A DNA stretch of 63,538 nt, filler included, from Stramenopiles sp. TOSAG23-6 (Eukaryota), in NCBI GenBank assembly GCA_900128565.1. It is 25 parts of 25 records of this genome, joined end to end, with 100 filler letters (N's around TTAATTAATTAA, not from the genome) between each part and the next. Parts side by side here need not be neighbours in the genome. Positions count along the whole stretch, not along the records: positions 7,684 to 10,140 come from LT638034.1; 24 more parts are not named here. The stretch is one strand, 5' to 3'. The position numbers and the translations under genes are program-made. This document shows positions 7,584-24,235 of the stretch, piece by piece. The notes below the pieces were generated by a model. The model saw only the letters and a list, made by a program, of their open reading frames with translations. It was not told the origin of the DNA and searched no databases. How positions within the stretch are numbered: position 1 is the stretch's first letter; each line of letters starts with the position of its first letter.

Positions 7584-7737
7584 NNNNNNNNNNNNNNNNN
7601 NNNNNNNNNNNNNNNNNNNNNNNNNNNTTAATTAATTAANNNNNNNNNNNNNNNNNNNNNNNNNNNNNNNNNNNNNNNNNNNNTTTTGTACCTAACAAAT
7701 TTTAGTTTTTTTTTTGAAATATTTTTCCAAAATACAT

Positions 7738-10057
7738 CCCTACTTTACTAGTATCAAGATGGGCGACACAGTTAGAACAAGATAAAGATACACAAATGCC
7801 TCCTCCAATTCTGGATACTAGAAGCTCGCCGGATGGAAATTTTATAGCATATGTTCAGGGAGGAGAAATCTATGTGTTAAGGATTGTAAAACAAATCGAT
7901 TCTTATGGAAGAATCATCGTAAATAGTCCAATACGATGTATGTCTTCTGATGGAATAAAAGATAGAATAAAAGAAACTGTAAAAACTGTAAAACGATCTG
8001 TAGTGACACATGGCGTTTCTAGTTTTATAGCGCAAGAAGAAATGGGTAGATTTCGTGGATTTTGGTGGTCAGATGATAGCACTATGATTGCATTTGAAGA
8101 GGTTGATTATGAACCTGTTTCAGAGCATAAAATTCTTCATCTGGATAAAACAGATGTGCCATTGGAAGAGAATCATTACTATCCATTTGCAGGGAAAAAA
8201 AATGTCAAGTCCCGTCTCGGAGTTGTTGCAGTAAATAATCCTGGTGTAGTAAAATGGATGAATCTAACAGAAATAGATGAGAAAAAGAGTTGTGGTGGAG
8301 CACCTGTACATCTATCCAATGATAAATATATACCTGAATATTTAGCCCGAGTTCAGTGGATGTCAGATACCTTTTTATTGGTACAAACACAAAGTAGAAG
8401 ACAGGACAAAACAGAACTTTTACAAATTAATTCTGTTACTGGAAAATGCGTAAAACTATTAGAAGAATCTGTCTTGGATCAATCAAGGTACGAATCTAGT
8501 TGTAAAGATTGTGATGTAAATAATTGCGTTGAATTGGGATATGAGAAGGATAGAAACATTGGTTGGGTAAATTTACATCAACTGTGCTCTGTTGTGACAA
8601 CACAAAATACATCAAATGATAAAACCAATGATAAAAAGTGGCTCATTTGGGGTTCAGAAAGATCAGGATATATGCATTTATACTTATATGCATTTGATAA
8701 CAAAAAAAAACAGAAAACAACCAGAAAAACAAAAGATCAAAATAACTTTTGTGAATTAGTATTATACGGGGCATTGACATGTGGTGATTGGTCAGTTGAA
8801 AAAATATGTGGTATTGATACTGTCAGAGGGATTTTGTTTTTCACAGGGACGAAAGAAAGCGTCTTGGAAAATCATTTATATGCTACCCAGATTCCTTTTA
8901 AAAATAAGAGATATCATGAGTATAGTAATATATCCAATGGACATTCAAGATTATGCAGAAAGATCACAAGGTTAACACCAAAAGAGTCTTTCAATACAAT
9001 AACCATGAGTCATAATTGTAAATATTTCATCAATTGTAGTAGTTCGTTACAGTCTGCACCTTCGGTACAACTGTTTGCAATAAAAGTGAGTGATAGTATT
9101 TGCTGTAGCATGAGTAACAGTACAATGCGAAGTAGTGTGATAGCGAGAGATATAAATATTACTTCATGCTTAACGAGAACATTCCACAGGAGCAGTATGA
9201 CATTGGTAAATGAATGCAAATCAACCTCATCATTTAGTTTTAATAATATTATGGCACGACTTTTGGGTCAAAAGGACCAATCAAATAAAATACCACAAGC
9301 ACCGACAATTAATTTACAAGCATGTACAAATAATAGTGGATTTTCTTCATTAAGACCTCCACTGCTGATATCATTCCCTTCCACGGATGGTGCGGTTACT
9401 CTACATGGTATGATATACGTACCAGATTCTACTATTTTCGGAAACGGGCCTTACCCTACCATCGTTAATGTTTATGGTAATTTACATATCTTTTTAACAT
9501 CTACATTTTGAAATGTTTGAATTCATATATTTTTTTACTAATTCTAAATGTTTTACATACATATTTATATATAACAGGTGGTCCATTAGTACAAGCAGTA
9601 AAGCGATCTTGGAATGTTTCAATGGATGTTTTATCTAGGCACTTCCAAGGGTTGGGGTTTTCAGTCTTAAAGTGTGACAACAGAGGTAGCTCTAGGCGTG
9701 GTGTAGAATTTGAACGGGCCATTTATGTATATTTTCATCATTTCATCTAATTTCATTTTTTTCATAGAAAATGTAAAAGTTTTAAACCTAACGAATGTCA
9801 AACTTTAAAACATATTTGCTGACAATCCATAGAAAGCTTGGTTCAGTAGAAGTCGAAGATCAAGTTGCTGCTGTAAAATATGCAATTTCTTTAGGTATTG
9901 TAGATAGAGATAAGGTTGGCTGTTACGGTTGGAGTTTTGGTGGATTCTTATCTACAATGTGTCTACTAAAAGCTCCTGATATATTTAAAGCTGCAGTTGC
10001 TGGAGCTCCTGTCACAAATTGGACTGGATATGATACACATTATACTGAGCGATATAT
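7738..10057 (+). CDS. Dipeptidyl peptidase IV/8/9-like S9B peptidase (partial); introns 9477-9577 (GT-AG) and 9727-9830 (GT-AT)
   Basis: EEMGRFRGFWWS, YPFAGKKN, VYGGP, DNRGS, catalytic GWSFGG and YDTHYTERYM motifs. Confidence 0.93.
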
Positions 10058-10299
10058 GTACGTTTTTGTCAATTTTTTTTTTTTTTTTTTGTTTTTTCAT
10101 AAAAAATTTCATACCTAACAAAAAAATAAAAAATAAAAAANNNNNNNNNNNNNNNNNNNNNNNNNNNNNNNNNNNNNNNNNNNNTTAATTAATTAANNNN
10201 NNNNNNNNNNNNNNNNNNNNNNNNNNNNNNNNNNNNNNNNTGTTAGGTACAAAATTTCGTACGAAAAAAAAATCAAATTTGAAAAAAAATAAAACATAC

Positions 10300-12616
10300 A
10301 CGTTCCGTAAGAAATTCTCGAAGAACTTTAGCTGAAGGCACCTGTGTCCAATCTTGAGGGACAATATGTATTGTGAAATGTTTTTGTTTTTGTTTCCGGT
10401 AAAAAAAAATCGTTAGGTACAAAATTACGTATGAAAATAATTTTAGAATTCATGATGAGACATAAGACGTACATATGCAACCAATCTTTTATCAGAGCCT
10501 TCATCCCCCTCCACTAAAACAACAGCAGTACTTACAAGAGGATGTTCACTAAGACTAGCTTCGACAGCACCCAAAACAACACTATATCCTCTTATTTTGA
10601 CCATGAAATCAACTCTTCCTGCTAATTCTAGAGTTCCATCTGGCATAAACCTGCCTCTATCACCCGTTCGATACAATCGATCATATAAGCCTGATGTTTC
10701 ATCATTCAATTTTATAAATGGATTCTTAACAAAACGTTCAGCAGTCTTTGCTGGCATATTCAAATAACCACGAGCAAGACACGGACCACCAACATGTATT
10801 GTGAAAAAAAAAACATTTTTTTGTACAAAAAAATCGTTAGGTACAAAATTTCGTATGAAAAAAAATTAAATTAGAAATTCATATCAAACGTACATACACT
10901 TCACCAGGTGTTCCAATTGGAACATGTTTCATTGTATTTGGATTTAAGACGTAACATTTTACATTAGCCATAATTGTACCACATGAAGCATATTTTCTTT
11001 TAGGTTTTGTTATTTTTGTTATTTTTGTATTTGTAGTGAAATCAGATTTTGTAGTACAATCACTCTTTTCAATACCATGATGTAAAACAGCAACAGACAC
11101 ATCATTTACTTTGGGGAAATATTTCAAAAAAAGAAAAACATCTTAGATACAAAATTTTGAATGAAAAAATTTAAAAAAAAAAAAAAAAAATGTAGAAAAA
11201 TATGTTTTGGTTTGTATACTTGTTAGGGTAATAAAAATGAAGAATGATATAATTAGGTTTAGGGTTAATTTAAAACAAAAAAATGAAGAATGATATAATT
11301 AGGTTTAGGGTTAATTTAAAACAAAAAAAATGAAGAATGATATAATTAGGTTTAGGGTTGATATATAACATACATGGCATTCAGATATAGAATATAAATT
11401 TAGTAGTTTACATGATGAAAAACAAGTTGAAAATTTCTGTTGTAACTCAAGTGTAACAACTTCTCCACAAAGCCAAACAATATGTATTTTGGAAAAGTAT
11501 TTCAAAAAAAAAAATTAAAATTTGTTAGGTACAAAATTTCCTATAAAAAAATAAATTCAAAATTGAAGAAAAAATAAAACATACATTCAATGAATTCATT
11601 CTTTCAAATAAAATTGATTCATCTAATGTATCCAGGACCAACTGTAATAAAGAAGGAGTCAATAAAATACGCGTAATTTGATATTTTTGAATATATAATG
11701 ATAATTCTTCAGCATCATATATGACGTCATCGGGGATTATAAATGTTGGAAATCCTCGCATCAGTGGACGAAAAACTTCCCATACAAAAAATACAGCACA
11801 TGCGACTTTATCGTGTTTTTGTAATGGATAATTTTCATGTCGCCAATGATAAGAATGAACCGCACCACGATGAGGACAACAAATTCCTTTTGGTACGCCT
11901 GTGGTCCCTGAGGACATGACAACATATGCTAAATTATCTGGAGTTGGTTCTTTTCTATTTGGGTATACATTCAAATCATTATATTTTGGTAATAAAAGTA
12001 ATTGTTCCCGCCAGTTTCCATCATCATCGATGACAAGTTGATTTTGTGTTGAAGGTAATCGTCCATGTAAGGTACTTTCTGTAAATACTGCGACACAATT
12101 TGTTTCACGTAATACTCGGTGAATCAATTCTGGAGGATACGCTAGTTCTATAGGCATATGTTTTGTAAAAAAATATTTAAAATTTTTTTTTTTCTTTAGG
12201 TACAAAATTTTTTGAAAAAAATAAATTCAAAATTGAAAAAAAANAAAANAATACATACGCACCACCTGCCTTATGTGCTGCAATATAACTCAACACATAT
12301 GCTGCGCTACGACTCATATATATTCCTACAACTCTATCGGGTACACATGTATTTTGGAAAAATATTTCAAAAAAATATTCGTTAGGTACAAAATTTCGTA
12401 TGAAAAAAAAAATCGATTTTTTTGTTAAAAAAAAAAATAAAACCTACATCCTTTTGCTACCAAATACGATGCGAGAAGATCTGTATCTTCATCAACCTGA
12501 GCATACGTCCAAGTATTTTGTTTTCCATTAGGTTTACAAGGATCAACAATAGCAATTGCATTGGGTGTTTTTTTAGATTGAACCATAAAAGAATCATGCA
12601 AACGCTCAGTATCAGG
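10300..12616 (-). CDS. NRPS-like adenylation-domain protein (partial) with six complete GT-AT introns (12347-12447, 12158-12254, 11482-11584, 11104-11373, 10794-10893, 10366-10472)
   Basis: Spliced motifs AGGAY/MPIELAYP, YVVMSSGTTGVPKG, NLYSISECH/DVS, PGEVY/VGGPCLARGYLN, LYRTGD, VKIRG, LVAY/IVP. Confidence 0.93.
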
Positions 12617-17962: not shown

Positions 17963-19879
17963 GGACGTTCCATACTTTTATTATCAGATCATATGCCTGT
18001 TCGAGCTGTATTTCGAATTTATGTAGATGAAATTTCTACCCTAAATAAAAGTAGAAATAGTACAAGTAATAGTAAAGACGAAGTTGTTATAGGGTATTGT
18101 AATGACATTTCACAGATGGAATTTTATTGCCTTGATAAAAATCCTAACCCAAATAGAAAAAACAATCAAAAAAATACAACTTCTATAAAAAAAATGCCTC
18201 TATTAACGATTCCCTCCCTTCACCATGATTTTAAAAATTGGCCACATCAAAAAAATACTACTGCAACTGAAAATGCAAATAATCTAAATTATCTAAAACA
18301 TTTAAAAAATTCAAAAGATAAAAAATTAGACAAACATAGACTAGGCATTTATAAAGTGGATGTACGTTTTATTTTTTTTTTTAAACAAAAAATCGATTTT
18401 TTTTCGTACGAAATTTTGTACCTAACAATTTCTTTTAGATTTTTTTTGAAATATTTTTCATAATAAATGATGCAAATCATGTGTTACATATATATCAAAT
18501 ATTTACGTTGTGTACGAAATTGGTACAAGATAAGAATAAATCAAACCATACAATATCAATTTTACCACTTGTACCCGTTCATAAAAATATCATTATTTGT
18601 ACGTTATCAAATGAAAGTCTAAACGATAGAAATGTAGGATTTCCATGTTGTTGTATAAAAACAGGAAGAAAAAGAAAAAAAATAAAAAAAAAAAAAAGTC
18701 GTCAAAATCAAAACAATCAAAAACATATGAAATCTCTACAGGAATTTCTACAGTTTCATAATCCTCATACATCGTATCAATCAGCTTTACAATTATGTGC
18801 TCAAACTATGGCTTTGCATTCAGTTGTTGCTTTTGTCTTTGGATTATTAGATTGGTGTTCTTATTGGTGGATTTGTCCAAATGGACAGGTTTGTACTGAT
18901 ATGAAATGTATAGAATTTCTACTGGGTTGTAAAAATACAAAACATACAAAACATACAAAACATACAAAACATACAAAAAATATATTTACACATAACCCTA
19001 CTAAAATCAGGACATATTTAGAACCGCTCTCAGTAGCAGGAGAAATTATGCAATCCATTGACATGCTTGATGAATGGCGCGAACATGAACGTTTTATTTT
19101 TTTTCAATTTCGAATTTATTTTTTTTGTACGAAATTTCTTACCTAACAAAAAAAACAATATAAAAATATATTTTTTCACAATACATGCTATTGCAACATG
19201 GTTTGTTTTACGAAACAATGTCACTTCGTTTAGTAGTATATTTCGTGTGTTTACAAAAACACAAACACCACGAAATATGTATGAACATGCTATGGTGTAC
19301 ATAACAGAAACGTTACATCTAGATTGCATTAAAAAGAAAAACAAACAAAAAATTCGAAATTCGTTTTTTACAATTTTACAAAAGTCAGCAATATCAAATT
19401 CTACACTGACTTTACAAAATTTGATACAAAATTTGTTACCTAAAGGTATGATAACATCACAACGTTCCAATCTAAATACTCTACAAATCAAAATATTGAA
19501 AATGCAAACGATGAAATTGAAAAGTGTATGTTTTTTTTTCAAATTCGAAATTTTTTTCGTACGCAATTTTGTACTTAACAATTTTTTTTTGAAATATTTT
19601 TCCAAAATACATACACTTCAAAAAAAATATTTAAAAGATAATGAAATTTTACCTGTTGGTTTTTATGCTGGTTCTATTGACGATAGACTGTGTGCTGTGT
19701 ATGGTACAAAAAATGGTACAAAAAATAGAATTGATAGAATTGAACTTTTTTTTTCTACTATTTCAGATATTTCGTGTTCTGGTGGTAGTGATATTTCAGA
19801 AGAGGAAGACGGAAATAAAAGTAGAAGAAGATGTTCATCTTGGATGCAACAAATTCCCCCAGGAACACCTCCACCATAA
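17963..19879 (+). CDS. Multi-exon protein with an inositol 5-phosphatase-type C-terminal motif and a degenerate PI3K-like region; introns 18362-18468, 19087-19186, 19526-19612
   Basis: SDHMPVRAVF motif; later CAQTMALHSVVAFVFGLLD..NGQV..D and AIATWFVLRN resemble PI3K catalytic-domain segments; exons join in frame with AT-ending introns. Confidence 0.5.
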
Positions 19880-21571: not shown

Positions 21572-21951
21572 TTTGTTATGAGAGTAATTAGTTATACGTA
21601 GTAGTGTGCCAATTTGTTTACTGATTATTGTGCGCACACCAAAACGAACAACAACAACAACACATGGTTATAGGTAGTTCCTGAGTCAGCTGATCAATTA
21701 TTCAACTAAGAGAAAAGACTGTGTCAAAAAAACAAGCAGTTTTGTTCCGAAATATTGACAACTGAATTTCGAATCGAATAATTTCTACATCTTTCAAAAA
21801 ATTAGATTGTTTTGTTAGGTACAAAATTTTCATAATAAAAAAAATGTAGAATCGAATAATTTCCACATCTTTATATTTAGCAATAAATGTAAACCATCAA
21901 GTTGAAACTTGTCTTTTAATTAGGGTTAGGGTTTTGGAATAATTTTCCATT

Positions 21952-22801
21952 TCAAACTTGTCTTTTAATAAGTTTTTGGAATAATTTTCCATTAGAATTA
22001 TCTACATCAACTAAATCCTGATATGTCCCAGTTTCAACAATTTGTCCTTCATGCATTAACGCAATAGAGTCAGCAGCGCGCATTGTACTAACTCTATGCA
22101 TTTTGGAAAAATATTTCAAAAAAAAAATTCTAAAATTTGTTAGGTACAAAATTTCGTACGAAACCAAAAAAAAAAATAAATTCGAAATTGAAAAAAAATA
22201 AAACGTACATGAGCTATGGATATAATAGTTGTATTTGTTTCACCTATTTTCGTTTTATTACAAATACGATGTACCGCACGTTGAATCTCATACATATATT
22301 TAAAAAAAATATTTTTTTTTTTGTAAAATTTGTTAGGTACGAAATTTCGTACGAAAAAAAAAATTAGACAAAAAAATCAAAAAAAAATAAAACATACTCA
22401 CTTTCTGAATCTAAAGCTGATGTTGCTTCATCAAGAATGATAATAGGAGGATTTATCAGGAGAGCTCTAGCCAATGCAATTCGTTGTTTTTGCCCACCTG
22501 AAAGTTGAATACCTCGTTCTCCAACCATGTAGTATGAAAAAATATGACACATTTGAAATGGGTCAAATAAAATGTTACGTACAAAAAATTTTGGTACAAA
22601 TTTTGGTACAAATTTTGGTACAAAAAAAAAAAAAAAAAATTAAAATTGGTGATGAAAAATTACATTGTATCAAGACCATCTGGCAGAGCCATCACGAAAT
22701 CATAAGCAGAAGATGCAATTAAAACGTCTTCGATTTGTGACAAATTTGCATCTGGACATCCAAATTTTATATTATCCAATAGAGAACATTTATTGTCAAA
22801 C
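21952..22801 (-). CDS. ABCB-type ABC transporter, C-terminal nucleotide-binding domain; GT-AT introns 22527-22663, 22294-22397, 22096-22208
   Basis: [50 protein letters not shown]. Confidence 0.93.
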
Positions 22802-23139: not shown

Positions 23140-24235
23140 ATGAAGTTTGTTTGCTATCGTTGTAATTCTTGTGTTTATAAGCAGAAAATCGATTCATTCT
23201 TTGCAAATGATTCTGTTTTATTGTTGAAATATTTGATGATTTTGATAATGTTGATGATGATTTTGATGAGTTTTCTATACGAAATTCTGTACCATCTTGA
23301 CATTTTTTTTCATTTTTTTCATTTTTTTTATTTTTTTCATTTTTTTTATTTTTTTTATTTTTTATATTTGTTTGCAATTGTAGTGTTAATTCTTTAACTC
23401 GTGCCTTTATTGCTTCATTGTCCAATCCAGATATACGTAATGCTGTTTGAATATTAGCAAGACTTTCATTATCTAATCTACTTTTACCTGTTTTGTATGA
23501 ACATATTTCAAAAATATTATTTTTTTTTGTTTTTTTGGTTAGGTACAAAATTTCGTATGAAAAAAAAAAAAAAAAGTAGTAGGGTTAGGATAAAGTACAT
23601 ATACCCCTTTCAATTCTGCTCCGTACAAACACTTTTTTCGTTCTATATTCTTCATCTACAACAGTTGTGTCCAAACCAGATAAAATCATTCGCTCAAATA
23701 TTCTTACTTTTGTAAAACCCAACACATCATGTAAATGAAATATATGTCGATATTCAGGGTGAATATTCGCATTGATGAGAGGTTCCTTTAATGGAAACTT
23801 TAACGTTTCCTTTAGAGATTGCTTTTCTCCCAATGTTGCACATGGTACAACTGTTCCTTGTTTTTTTGATTCTGTTGATTCCTTTGGTTGTTTTGGTATA
23901 CTATATTTAGAAGTCCGTCGTTGTTTTGTGTGACTAGGTAATGTTGTCGTGACACTTTTGTCACTTTGTTTTTTTTGGTTATCTTGGTTATTTTGGTTAT
24001 TTTGGATCGGGAGACCAGTGTATTCTTTTAAATACTTGACACTATCAATCTTGATCTGTGTACTGTCTTTTCGCCCCTTTCCTCCACGGAACATTTTTTG
24101 TATTGTAATTGCTGATGTATGTCGTTTAGCAGTATATTTTGATGTATATGGAACATTCTGAGGATTCCTAAGTGAATCTCTTATTTGTGTTGGGGTCCAA
24201 GGCCTGGAAAGAAGAGAACAATGAGAACCGCTCAT
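23140..24235 (-). CDS. IQ-motif protein (3'-partial); intron 23503-23598
   Basis: SAITIQKMFRG IQ motif; frames join with GT-AT removal. Confidence 0.65.

Follow-up and report, generated by a model that had tools for sequence, protein, structure and literature searches.

A repeated family of introns with apparent AT 3′ ends in a putative marine stramenopile

Introduction

Introns end in AG almost without exception, and there are few large-scale departures from this rule. The nearest precedent for the introns discussed here is the 3′-AT introns of Fritillaria, which make up 44% of the introns of F. pellucida and 34% of those of F. borealis, AT being the commonest acceptor (Soo et al. 2026, PMC13326754). 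Our subject is a stretch of 63,538 nucleotides, linkers included (hereafter the window), from the assembly of Stramenopiles sp. TOSAG23-6 (GCA_900128565.1), and within it a repeated family of introns of which most appear to end in AT. Two members receive most of the attention: the focal intron at 9727-9830 (+ strand, 104 nt), delimited by junction homology and family alignment in a gene for a DPP8/9-like peptidase, and a 113-nt intron at 22096-22208 (- strand) in a gene for an ABCB-type transporter. Both are followed directly by an AG.

Fritillaria introns are described as carrying YAY both as the triplet ahead of the 5′ site and as the final triplet of the intron, along with a T-rich tract, and the noncanonical ones as being removed by the major spliceosome, with a duplication of U2AF and changes in N6-methyladenosine (m6A) on small nuclear RNA (snRNA) also described (PMC13326754); a transposon origin has been proposed for them (PMC11282704). 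The family in the window is similar in having a non-AG 3′ end as its major class (34 of 42 family ends are AT) and in keeping the T-rich tract. YAY closes the intron in 18 of 20 copies; just ahead of the donor it stands in 11 of 20, and AT directly precedes the donor in 16 of 20. In contrast to the main classes in Fritillaria, which start with AG (AG/AC and AG/AT), 24 of 25 copies here start with GT in a GTAYGT donor; moreover, the host groups with stramenopiles and not with tunicates, and one sequence family makes up the class.

Introners offer a second point of comparison. Those of Micromonas, Aureococcus, dinoflagellates, and others have GY..AG borders, and the departures described for them are rare donors of the GC and GA type, not acceptors other than AG (Gozashti et al. 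2022, PMC9860276). The likeness lies in the many near-identical short elements that form whole introns in unrelated genes of aquatic protists, and in the short direct repeats of which one copy is spliced out with the element so that the mRNA length is unchanged. The difference lies in the acceptor, which here appears to be the duplicated target (AT or TT) rather than AG. Further introner work was reportedly done by Huff et al. in 2016. More than 60% of the introns of the parasitic dinoflagellate Amoebophrya are not GT-AG, and its introners have direct repeats of 3-5 nt at their borders (Farhat et al. 2021, PMC7789003), as well as inverted repeats of 8-20 nt that form a hairpin; the terminal dinucleotides show no preference, and U1 is not detected (PMC7789003). 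Ambiguity of register from border repeats is common to these introners and the present family, both of marine protists, whereas the present family has a canonical donor, its inverted ends span only some 4-6 nt, and its folding is no better than that of shuffled sequences in three of four copies.

The U12-type AT-AC introns of the minor spliceosome have an RTATCCTT donor and a branch site of TCCTTAAC about 10-26 nt from the 3′ end. Family copies with intact AT flanks can be written as AT..AC, and their ACCTAAC box loosely resembles TCCTTAAC; the donor here is instead GTAYGT, and 32-48 nt separate the box from the 3′ end. The nonconventional introns of euglenids are also not GT-AG, have no conserved borders, and depend on a stable secondary structure, pairing being proposed to bring their ends together (PMC12501133, PMC4770533). 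The present family shares with them the non-GT-AG borders but has a conventional donor and branch box and no significant structure. Noncanonical introns were absent, by term searches, from the main text of three marine stramenopile (MAST) genome papers (PMC5778133, with its supplement files, PMC12614181, and PMC8163842), as far as the text available from these sources extends. The words "introner" and "MAST" were not paired in the literature searched, PDF supplements and subscription papers lying outside that search. Genome-scale non-AG splicing with an origin separate from that in tunicates and euglenozoans, if true, has apparently not yet been reported.

Junctions required in two genes

The window consists of 25 separate contigs, ordered by descending size from 2,463 to 2,427 bases and joined by linkers of the form N44-TTAATTAATTAA-N44 (e.g., 7584-7683 and 10141-10240), so that adjacency within it has no genomic meaning. 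The contig at 7684-10140 carries the DPP gene. The in-frame part of its upstream exon (9580-9726, +) ends ...GVEFERAIY, the downstream exon (9831-10058, +) reads RKLGSVEVEDQ...GWSFGG...TERYM, and the sequence across the intron on the + strand is ...GCC ATT TAT|GTATATTTTC...CTGACAATCCAT|AGA AAG CTT. The junction required in the mRNA is TAT|AGA (9726|9831), with the AG at 9831-9832 not used as an acceptor but belonging to AGA, the Arg codon with which the next exon begins. Splicing from the GT donor at 9727 to the adjacent TAG instead gives the frameshifted peptide KAWFSRSRRSSCCCKICNFFRYCR*, with a stop after 24 codons, and reading through the donor meets a stop 7 codons further on. In the register of the repeated family the intron is GT..AT, although the registers 9725-9828 and 9726-9829 yield an identical mRNA.

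Protein homology fixes the DPP junction. The downstream exon matches DPP8/9 and DPP4 structures with E values down to 1e-22, and the two exons meet on consecutive residues of three solved DPPs (743|744 in 8pba, 578|579 in 5yp1, and 542|543 in 2z3w). A metagenome scan provided 80 uninterrupted DPP-homologous loci, all of them distant at no more than 69% identity, and the residue at the junction was counted in the first 40 of these after two that were without 36 upstream bases had been dropped (n = 38). The spacing is the same as in the window in 38 of 38 loci (RRG..F.....-X-.LGSVEVEDQ), where X is R in 20, H in 8, G in 5, N in 3, K and L in one each, and V in none. The shared spacing and the lack of V indicate that AIY-R-KLG is right, and they disfavor both the V that would follow from a shifted donor and the shorter join AIY|LG.

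The second intron lies on the contig at 20462-22913, which carries the ABCB-type transporter gene. This copy stays close to the family consensus (GTACGT...CCAAAATGCAT, 58.4 bits), and on the - strand the sequence reads ...ATA GCT CAT|GTACGTTTT...CCAAAATGCAT|AGA GTT AGT, with a CAT direct repeat bordering the intron on both sides. The required mRNA junction is CAT|AGA (22209|22095), and the AG at 22094-22095 (-) once more opens an Arg codon (AGA). From the GT donor, use of the adjacent TAG would give S and then a stop at the second codon. The AGs ending at exon positions +2, +4, and +8 are all out of frame with this donor. The first exon residue, R, aligns with residue 588 of ABCB1, 561 of ABCB19, and 553 of MsbA, and the H-loop tripeptide, which we take to be a near-invariant AHR, would put Arg after His at this junction. 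The next family intron upstream in the same gene (22294-22397, -, ...LDSES E|YEIQRAV...) is GTATGT..ATAT as the family is aligned, and the register 22290-22393 gives the same mRNA.

Thus the frame-preserving, homology-supported junctions of both introns are without an AG end, whereas a neighboring intron of the DPP gene, at 9477-9577, has one. The earlier note on this DNA had held that an AG just past these two introns must be ignored, and its description was accurate when checked against the DPP (+) and ABC (-) strands: both introns end as it said with AGA next, and use of the adjacent TAG does shift the frame of both genes.

A repeated intron family

Most introns of the window have one sequence in common. 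The family is about 100 nt long, with the layout GTAYGT…TACCTAAC…T-run…CAMAATRCAT, and the consensus drawn from aligned full copies is GTATGTTTTAT..AATTTC.AATTTATTTTTTTTTCGTACGAAATTTTGTACCTAACAAATTTT..(T-rich)..AAATATTTTTTCACAATACAT. Across the window the central 15-mer TTTGTACCTAACAAA has 65 matches with up to two mismatches, where 0.64 would be expected; for the 3′ 16-mer TTTTTCCAAAATRCAT the count is 21 and the expectation 1.41. It is the class itself, rather than the pair of introns followed by AG, that exceeds chance. A sequence-only model of the family has 89 matches at E ≤0.01 in 63.5 kb, a number that includes partial copies at contig ends and some reverse-strand matches on the palindromic center. 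Genes that carry copies include those for the DPP, an AMP-binding enzyme, the ABC transporter, Dna2-like and POT1-like proteins, and a DEAH helicase. Our counts concern this family only, as a generic enumeration of all introns in the window was too noisy, T-rich introns often being open in frame.

To place the focal intron, a model (R2) was made from 21 other copies with the focal intron left out, and with search filters off it found 9727-9829 at model positions 1-102 of 103 (18.3 bits, E 4.2e-6). Since the match runs to model position 102, family position 103 corresponds to base 9830. The CTGAC of the focal intron, a look-alike of a branch site, aligns to the family's TTCAC and so belongs to the 3′ motif instead of forming a branch box of its own. 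The intron at 9727-9830 is a worn, diverged copy of the repeated family. The same contig holds two further pieces of it: the 3′ half of a copy at the contig start (7684-7737, +), which ends ...CCAAAATACAT before the long DPP exon and matches model positions 51-103 with 31.8 bits, and the 5′ part of a copy, cut by the contig end, after the downstream DPP exon (10058-10132, +).

Removal of the copies keeps the reading frame. When the longest open frame was picked independently on each side of a copy, 23 of 25 full copies were in frame in the family register (16 plus 6 by best frames when cut as GT...(Y)AT at the family ends, and the focal intron by homology), where chance is one third. Any equal shift of both borders also keeps the frame, so the register must come from residues. 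It can be read in a DHX29-like DEAH helicase, where the family intron at 53149-53286 (+, GG|GTACG...ATACAT|AC) is without a flanking repeat: GT..AT gives APGR|TFPV, which is colinear with R757|758-Y759PVEVFHLEDIIE of DHX29, the upstream exon ending at R757 and the second downstream residue aligning to 759. A register shifted by -2 would turn the R into N.

Variant copies are also in frame. One at 37339-37453 (+) ends in TT, TT being the last two exon bases as well, a second TT-ending copy at 54404-54520 (-) has TT before its donor, and one at 41902-42006 (-) ends in ACGT, making it GT..GT. At the 5′ end, 24 of 25 copies begin with GT and one with GA; the latter, at 19087-19186 (+, GAACGTTTT...ACAT), has 216 and 230 open codons on either side. 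A copy at 37900-38004 (+, ATATGTTTT) fits the frame only from an ATATGT start and was left out of all counts. These last two copies seem to have lost the G or the GT of the donor yet lie between long open frames, a hint that some flexibility extends to the donor dinucleotide or that AT..AC is the register there.

Many contigs terminate within a family intron, which suggests that the repeat breaks the assembly. One contig, 28116-30565, is an inverted duplicate of itself around position ~29340, with 28775-28873 equal to 29808-29906, 28121-28200 to 30481-30560, and 29238-29338 to 29343-29443. It looks like an amplification or assembly chimera rather than biology, and its introns were counted once.

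3′ ends, bypassed AGs, and the flanking repeat

Among 42 nonduplicate 3′ ends the last two aligned bases are AT in 34, TT, GT, and AG in two each, and uncertain in two, unaligned last columns having been read from the printed flanks. The frame-preserving 3′ end is always the last aligned position of the conserved motif ...TTTTYCAMAATRCAT, and AT, TT, GT, and AG are all present at the last two aligned positions. Two copies at 27936-28010 and 55903-55956 (both -) have G in place of T at the last one (...CATAATGCAG and ...CACAATACAG), and a further copy at 23505-23598 (-) ends ...ACAAAACAG. These copies, whose 5′ parts are cut off by contig ends, indicate that one position is used with either AG or AT ends.

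AG dinucleotides in the vicinity of the 3′ end are passed over. Nine of 20 curated copies have an AG after the branch-like CYTAAC that must be skipped on the way to the 3′ end; it lies 20-41 nt upstream of that end and often takes the form CCTAAC-N-TTTTAG. Four of the 20 have an AG inside the exon, ending no further in than base 8. An AG at exon positions +1,+2 is found in 2 of 25 curated copies, the DPP and ABC introns, and in 2 of 34 AT-ending copies, which is about what dinucleotide frequencies predict, so the DPP/ABC pair is a sample of the class and has no rule of its own. The distance from branch-like box to 3′ end varies from 32 to 48 nt, with 78 nt in one copy, which argues against a strict ruler. 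The earlier note had supposed that the upstream motif or a distance, rather than scanning to the first AG, sets the acceptor, and this is supported in part. The case against scanning has gained from the bypassed AGs and the AT ends, and the motif is favored over distance; the pair of introns followed by AG is a chance sample of a genome-wide class.

The bases next to the intron provide a clue to its origin. The dinucleotide that ends the exon recurs at the end of the intron in 20 of 25 copies, mostly as AT, against a mean of 16.2 with shuffled partners (P(≥20) = 0.006), and both TT-ending copies are preceded by TT. The ends GTAY...RTAC are reverse complementary over only about 4 nt, and no longer inverted repeat and no transposase was seen in the window. 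A 2-nt flanking repeat together with GTAY...RTAC ends suggests, at the level of sequence, a short element with a 2-nt target duplication, and hence a possible transposon origin. An acceptor dinucleotide that comes from the target would fit the variability at a fixed position.

RNA evidence and points against AT splicing

RNA was available as poly(A) seawater metatranscriptomes, each of which contains a share of at most 0.17 of the stretch, and four of these were aligned to the N-free DPP contig. One junction is bridged, that of the ordinary GT..AG intron of the DPP gene at 9477-9577 (+): a single contig in library X1 (depth 11, side 26) joins 9475 to 9577 and is classed as GT..AG (cut +1). The DPP gene is therefore expressed and spliced in poly(A) RNA. 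This intron is not a family member, the family model having no + strand match there. RNA contigs from other copies match the element at the contig start and diverge right after ...ACAT at 7737, six of them in X1 and four in X2, and one more in each of the two libraries diverges at 7738. When the 76-residue downstream DPP exon was searched among proteins of 41-133 residues for transcript-derived fragments that bridge the junction, nothing exceeded 79% identity.

Several observations weigh against AT splicing or against our account of it. In the four libraries on the DPP contig no RNA read or contig bridges 9726/9831, and no AT-type junction of any kind is bridged, 9477-9577 being the sole junction that is, so that we infer AT splicing from protein conservation alone. 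The RNA-confirmed intron 9477-9577 itself contains TTTTACATACAT (within 9540-9577), which resembles the 3′ end of the family, lies about 12-24 nt upstream of the AG that is used, and is not used; a CAT-type sequence is therefore insufficient by itself, and the motif rule as stated is incomplete. One copy, at 10366-10472, fits the frame only with the second-longest downstream frame, and there is one clear exception, at 36389-36502 (+), which is out of frame in the family register (36391-36502) and in frame only from 36389, that is, as AT..AT. The flanking repeat is absent from 5 of 25 copies. Where the repeat is intact it leaves the exact cut register ambiguous, and consensus copies can be written as AT..AC; in that register the two focal introns become AT..CC and AT..GC. 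Lastly, RNA folding of four copies gave z scores of -2.19, -0.44, +0.68, and +1.12, with no consistent terminal structure.

We put a probability of about 0.7 on the reading that the focal intron is a diverged member of a high-copy, introner-type family, that it ends in AT, and that the AG after it has no part in the productive mRNA.

Alternative explanations

The bypassed AG need not mean that AG is invisible to the machinery. Both sites could be used, with the AG-spliced, frameshifted transcripts destroyed by nonsense-mediated decay, in which case the AG would be unproductive rather than ignored. The AG ends within the family (2 of 42) and the ordinary GT-AG intron of the DPP gene indicate that AG is recognized. 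A costly competition, however, predicts depletion of AG at exon +1,+2, where none is apparent (2 of 25, a sample far too small to carry much), and many genes would be wrecked if the upstream AG that 9 of 20 copies contain were used efficiently. On balance we regard competition of this kind as improbable. We also consider it unlikely that the DPP intron is canonical and runs from its GT to the next in-frame AG (9835-9836), giving AIY|LGSVEVEDQ, with the first AG being too near a branch site at CTGAC. Removal of 9727-9836 (110 nt) does keep the frame, the two AGs come 10 and 14 nt after a CTGAC, and a public protein, P0001 (eukprot:GSMAST32.ASY1.ANO1.2537.1), reads ...FERAIYLGSVEVEDQ in just this way. 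Yet an acceptor at 9836 loses RK, and spacing with both residues is kept in all 38 uninterrupted homologues and in the solved DPPs; CTGAC corresponds to the family TTCAC within the 3′ motif; and the ABC intron has no in-frame AG to offer its GT donor (+2, +4, +8). Nor is P0001 reliable here. It reads into the next intron (...TERYMYVFVNFFFFF), which marks it as the gene model of the DPP contig itself, and it drops internal stretches of the long exon.

The earlier note had itself raised the AG with a compensating donor shift. Moving the donor 2 nt downstream and taking the TAG as acceptor would make the introns AT..AG (DPP) and AC..AG (ABC), with products AIYVKLG and IAHVVST, and this does keep the frame while employing an AG. 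Homology speaks against it in both genes, as V occupies the DPP position in 0 of 38 homologues and the ABC Arg that would be replaced aligns with R588 of ABCB1. The shift would also take the cut away from the GTAYGT that the family conserves, and at 34 of the 42 family 3′ ends such a reading finds no AG to act on. We find it very hard to credit. An assembly or sequencing error that dropped AG from CATAG|AGA at both loci, so that the true introns are GT..AG, is given an equally slim chance, even though the assembly is highly fragmented (2.4-kb contigs with Ns) and includes the inverted-duplicate contig. It calls for an identical 2-nt loss at two loci and leaves 32 other AT ends with no nearby AG unexplained. 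Contigs from independent RNA libraries reproduce the element end ...AAAATACAT and diverge exactly after it, and the RNA alignment to the DPP contig has no insertions or deletions, although bases 9825-9835 lie outside its coverage.

Proposed mechanism and significance

Returning to the reading in which these introns are AT-ending copies of one spreading family, a course of events can be proposed. Every copy carries an ordinary donor of the major-spliceosome type (GTAYGT), followed by the branch-like box (TACCTAAC), a stretch rich in T, and the conserved ...TTTTYCAMAATRC at its 3′ end. The two further bases after ...TTTTYCAMAATRC, usually AT, repeat the last two of the upstream exon in the manner of a 2-nt target-site duplication. 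Productive splicing would then cut out the element plus one copy of the dinucleotide, so that the intron ends, at a constant position with respect to the 3′ motif, in AT, occasionally in TT or GT, and seldom in AG, and the AG after the DPP and ABC introns would be nothing but the start of an Arg codon. The junctions that the mRNAs require, family membership, the AT ends, in-frame removal, the flanking repeat, and the bypassed AGs are shown by the sequence comparisons; from them we infer that the major spliceosome removes the copies, that the 3′ motif rather than distance or AG places the cut, and that U is tolerated at the last position. Solved structures of the spliceosome have the final base of the intron in a noncanonical pair with the first G. 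The odds seem to us evenly balanced on the broader proposal: a free-living marine stramenopile in which introns spread with an acceptor that is a 2-nt target duplication (AT, TT, or GT) behind a transposon-borne motif, and in which an otherwise conventional major spliceosome cuts by motif or position and tolerates a last U.

If confirmed by RNA, the family would provide a clean natural experiment, in which the donor and branch box are canonical and only the last dinucleotide, apparently derived from the target, departs from the rule, and it would single out the question of how the site of the second catalytic step is located. A new route to tolerating transposon-derived introns would be shown as well, one in which the element need neither bring nor find an AG. 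There are practical consequences as well. If the AT ends are true, public gene models of the lineage are systematically wrong at AT-ending introns; predictors restricted to GT-AG mis-model these genes, and the proteomes and metatranscriptome mappings of a plankton group that is abundant but uncultured are probably degraded at such introns.

Host, public gene model, and other features of the window

After its own gene model, the best protein matches of the 579-residue DPP exon are oomycetes at ~30% identity, followed by Chara, plants, and other stramenopiles (brown algae), and by sequence the host looks like a marine stramenopile; the gene model itself bears a MAST label. These matches speak against a larvacean host, which the likeness of the 3′ AT ends and YAY triplets to Fritillaria had suggested. 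The top match of the same exon is P0001 (7739-10118), which shows what the public annotation makes of this contig. It splices 9727 to the AG at 9836, dropping RK, excises stretches within the long exon (e.g., ...GEIYV|PIRCMSS), and reads through the donor at 10059. These errors are probably the consequences of prediction limited to GT-AG.

The window is AT-rich, with a GC content of 19-36% per 2 kb, and an Rfam scan of it gave no family at threshold and hence no snRNA. The central module of the family (..CGTACGAAATTTCGTACCTAACAAA..) also occurs in tandem arrays with a period of 76-82 nt, on very AT-rich and apparently noncoding contigs (57783-58017, 56072-56247, 56549-56735, and 58264-58470), and is therefore not confined to introns. 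Minisatellites of the form (TTTTTTGTA)n or (TGTATGTTT)n stand at several contig edges (48467-48607, 50611-50707, and 18927-19007). Telomere-like blocks of (TTAGGG/CCCTAA)2-3 are found within introns and just 3′ of stop codons, as at the stop of the ABC gene, at ~21921-21938, 48790-48810, 53640-53660, and 11115-11355.

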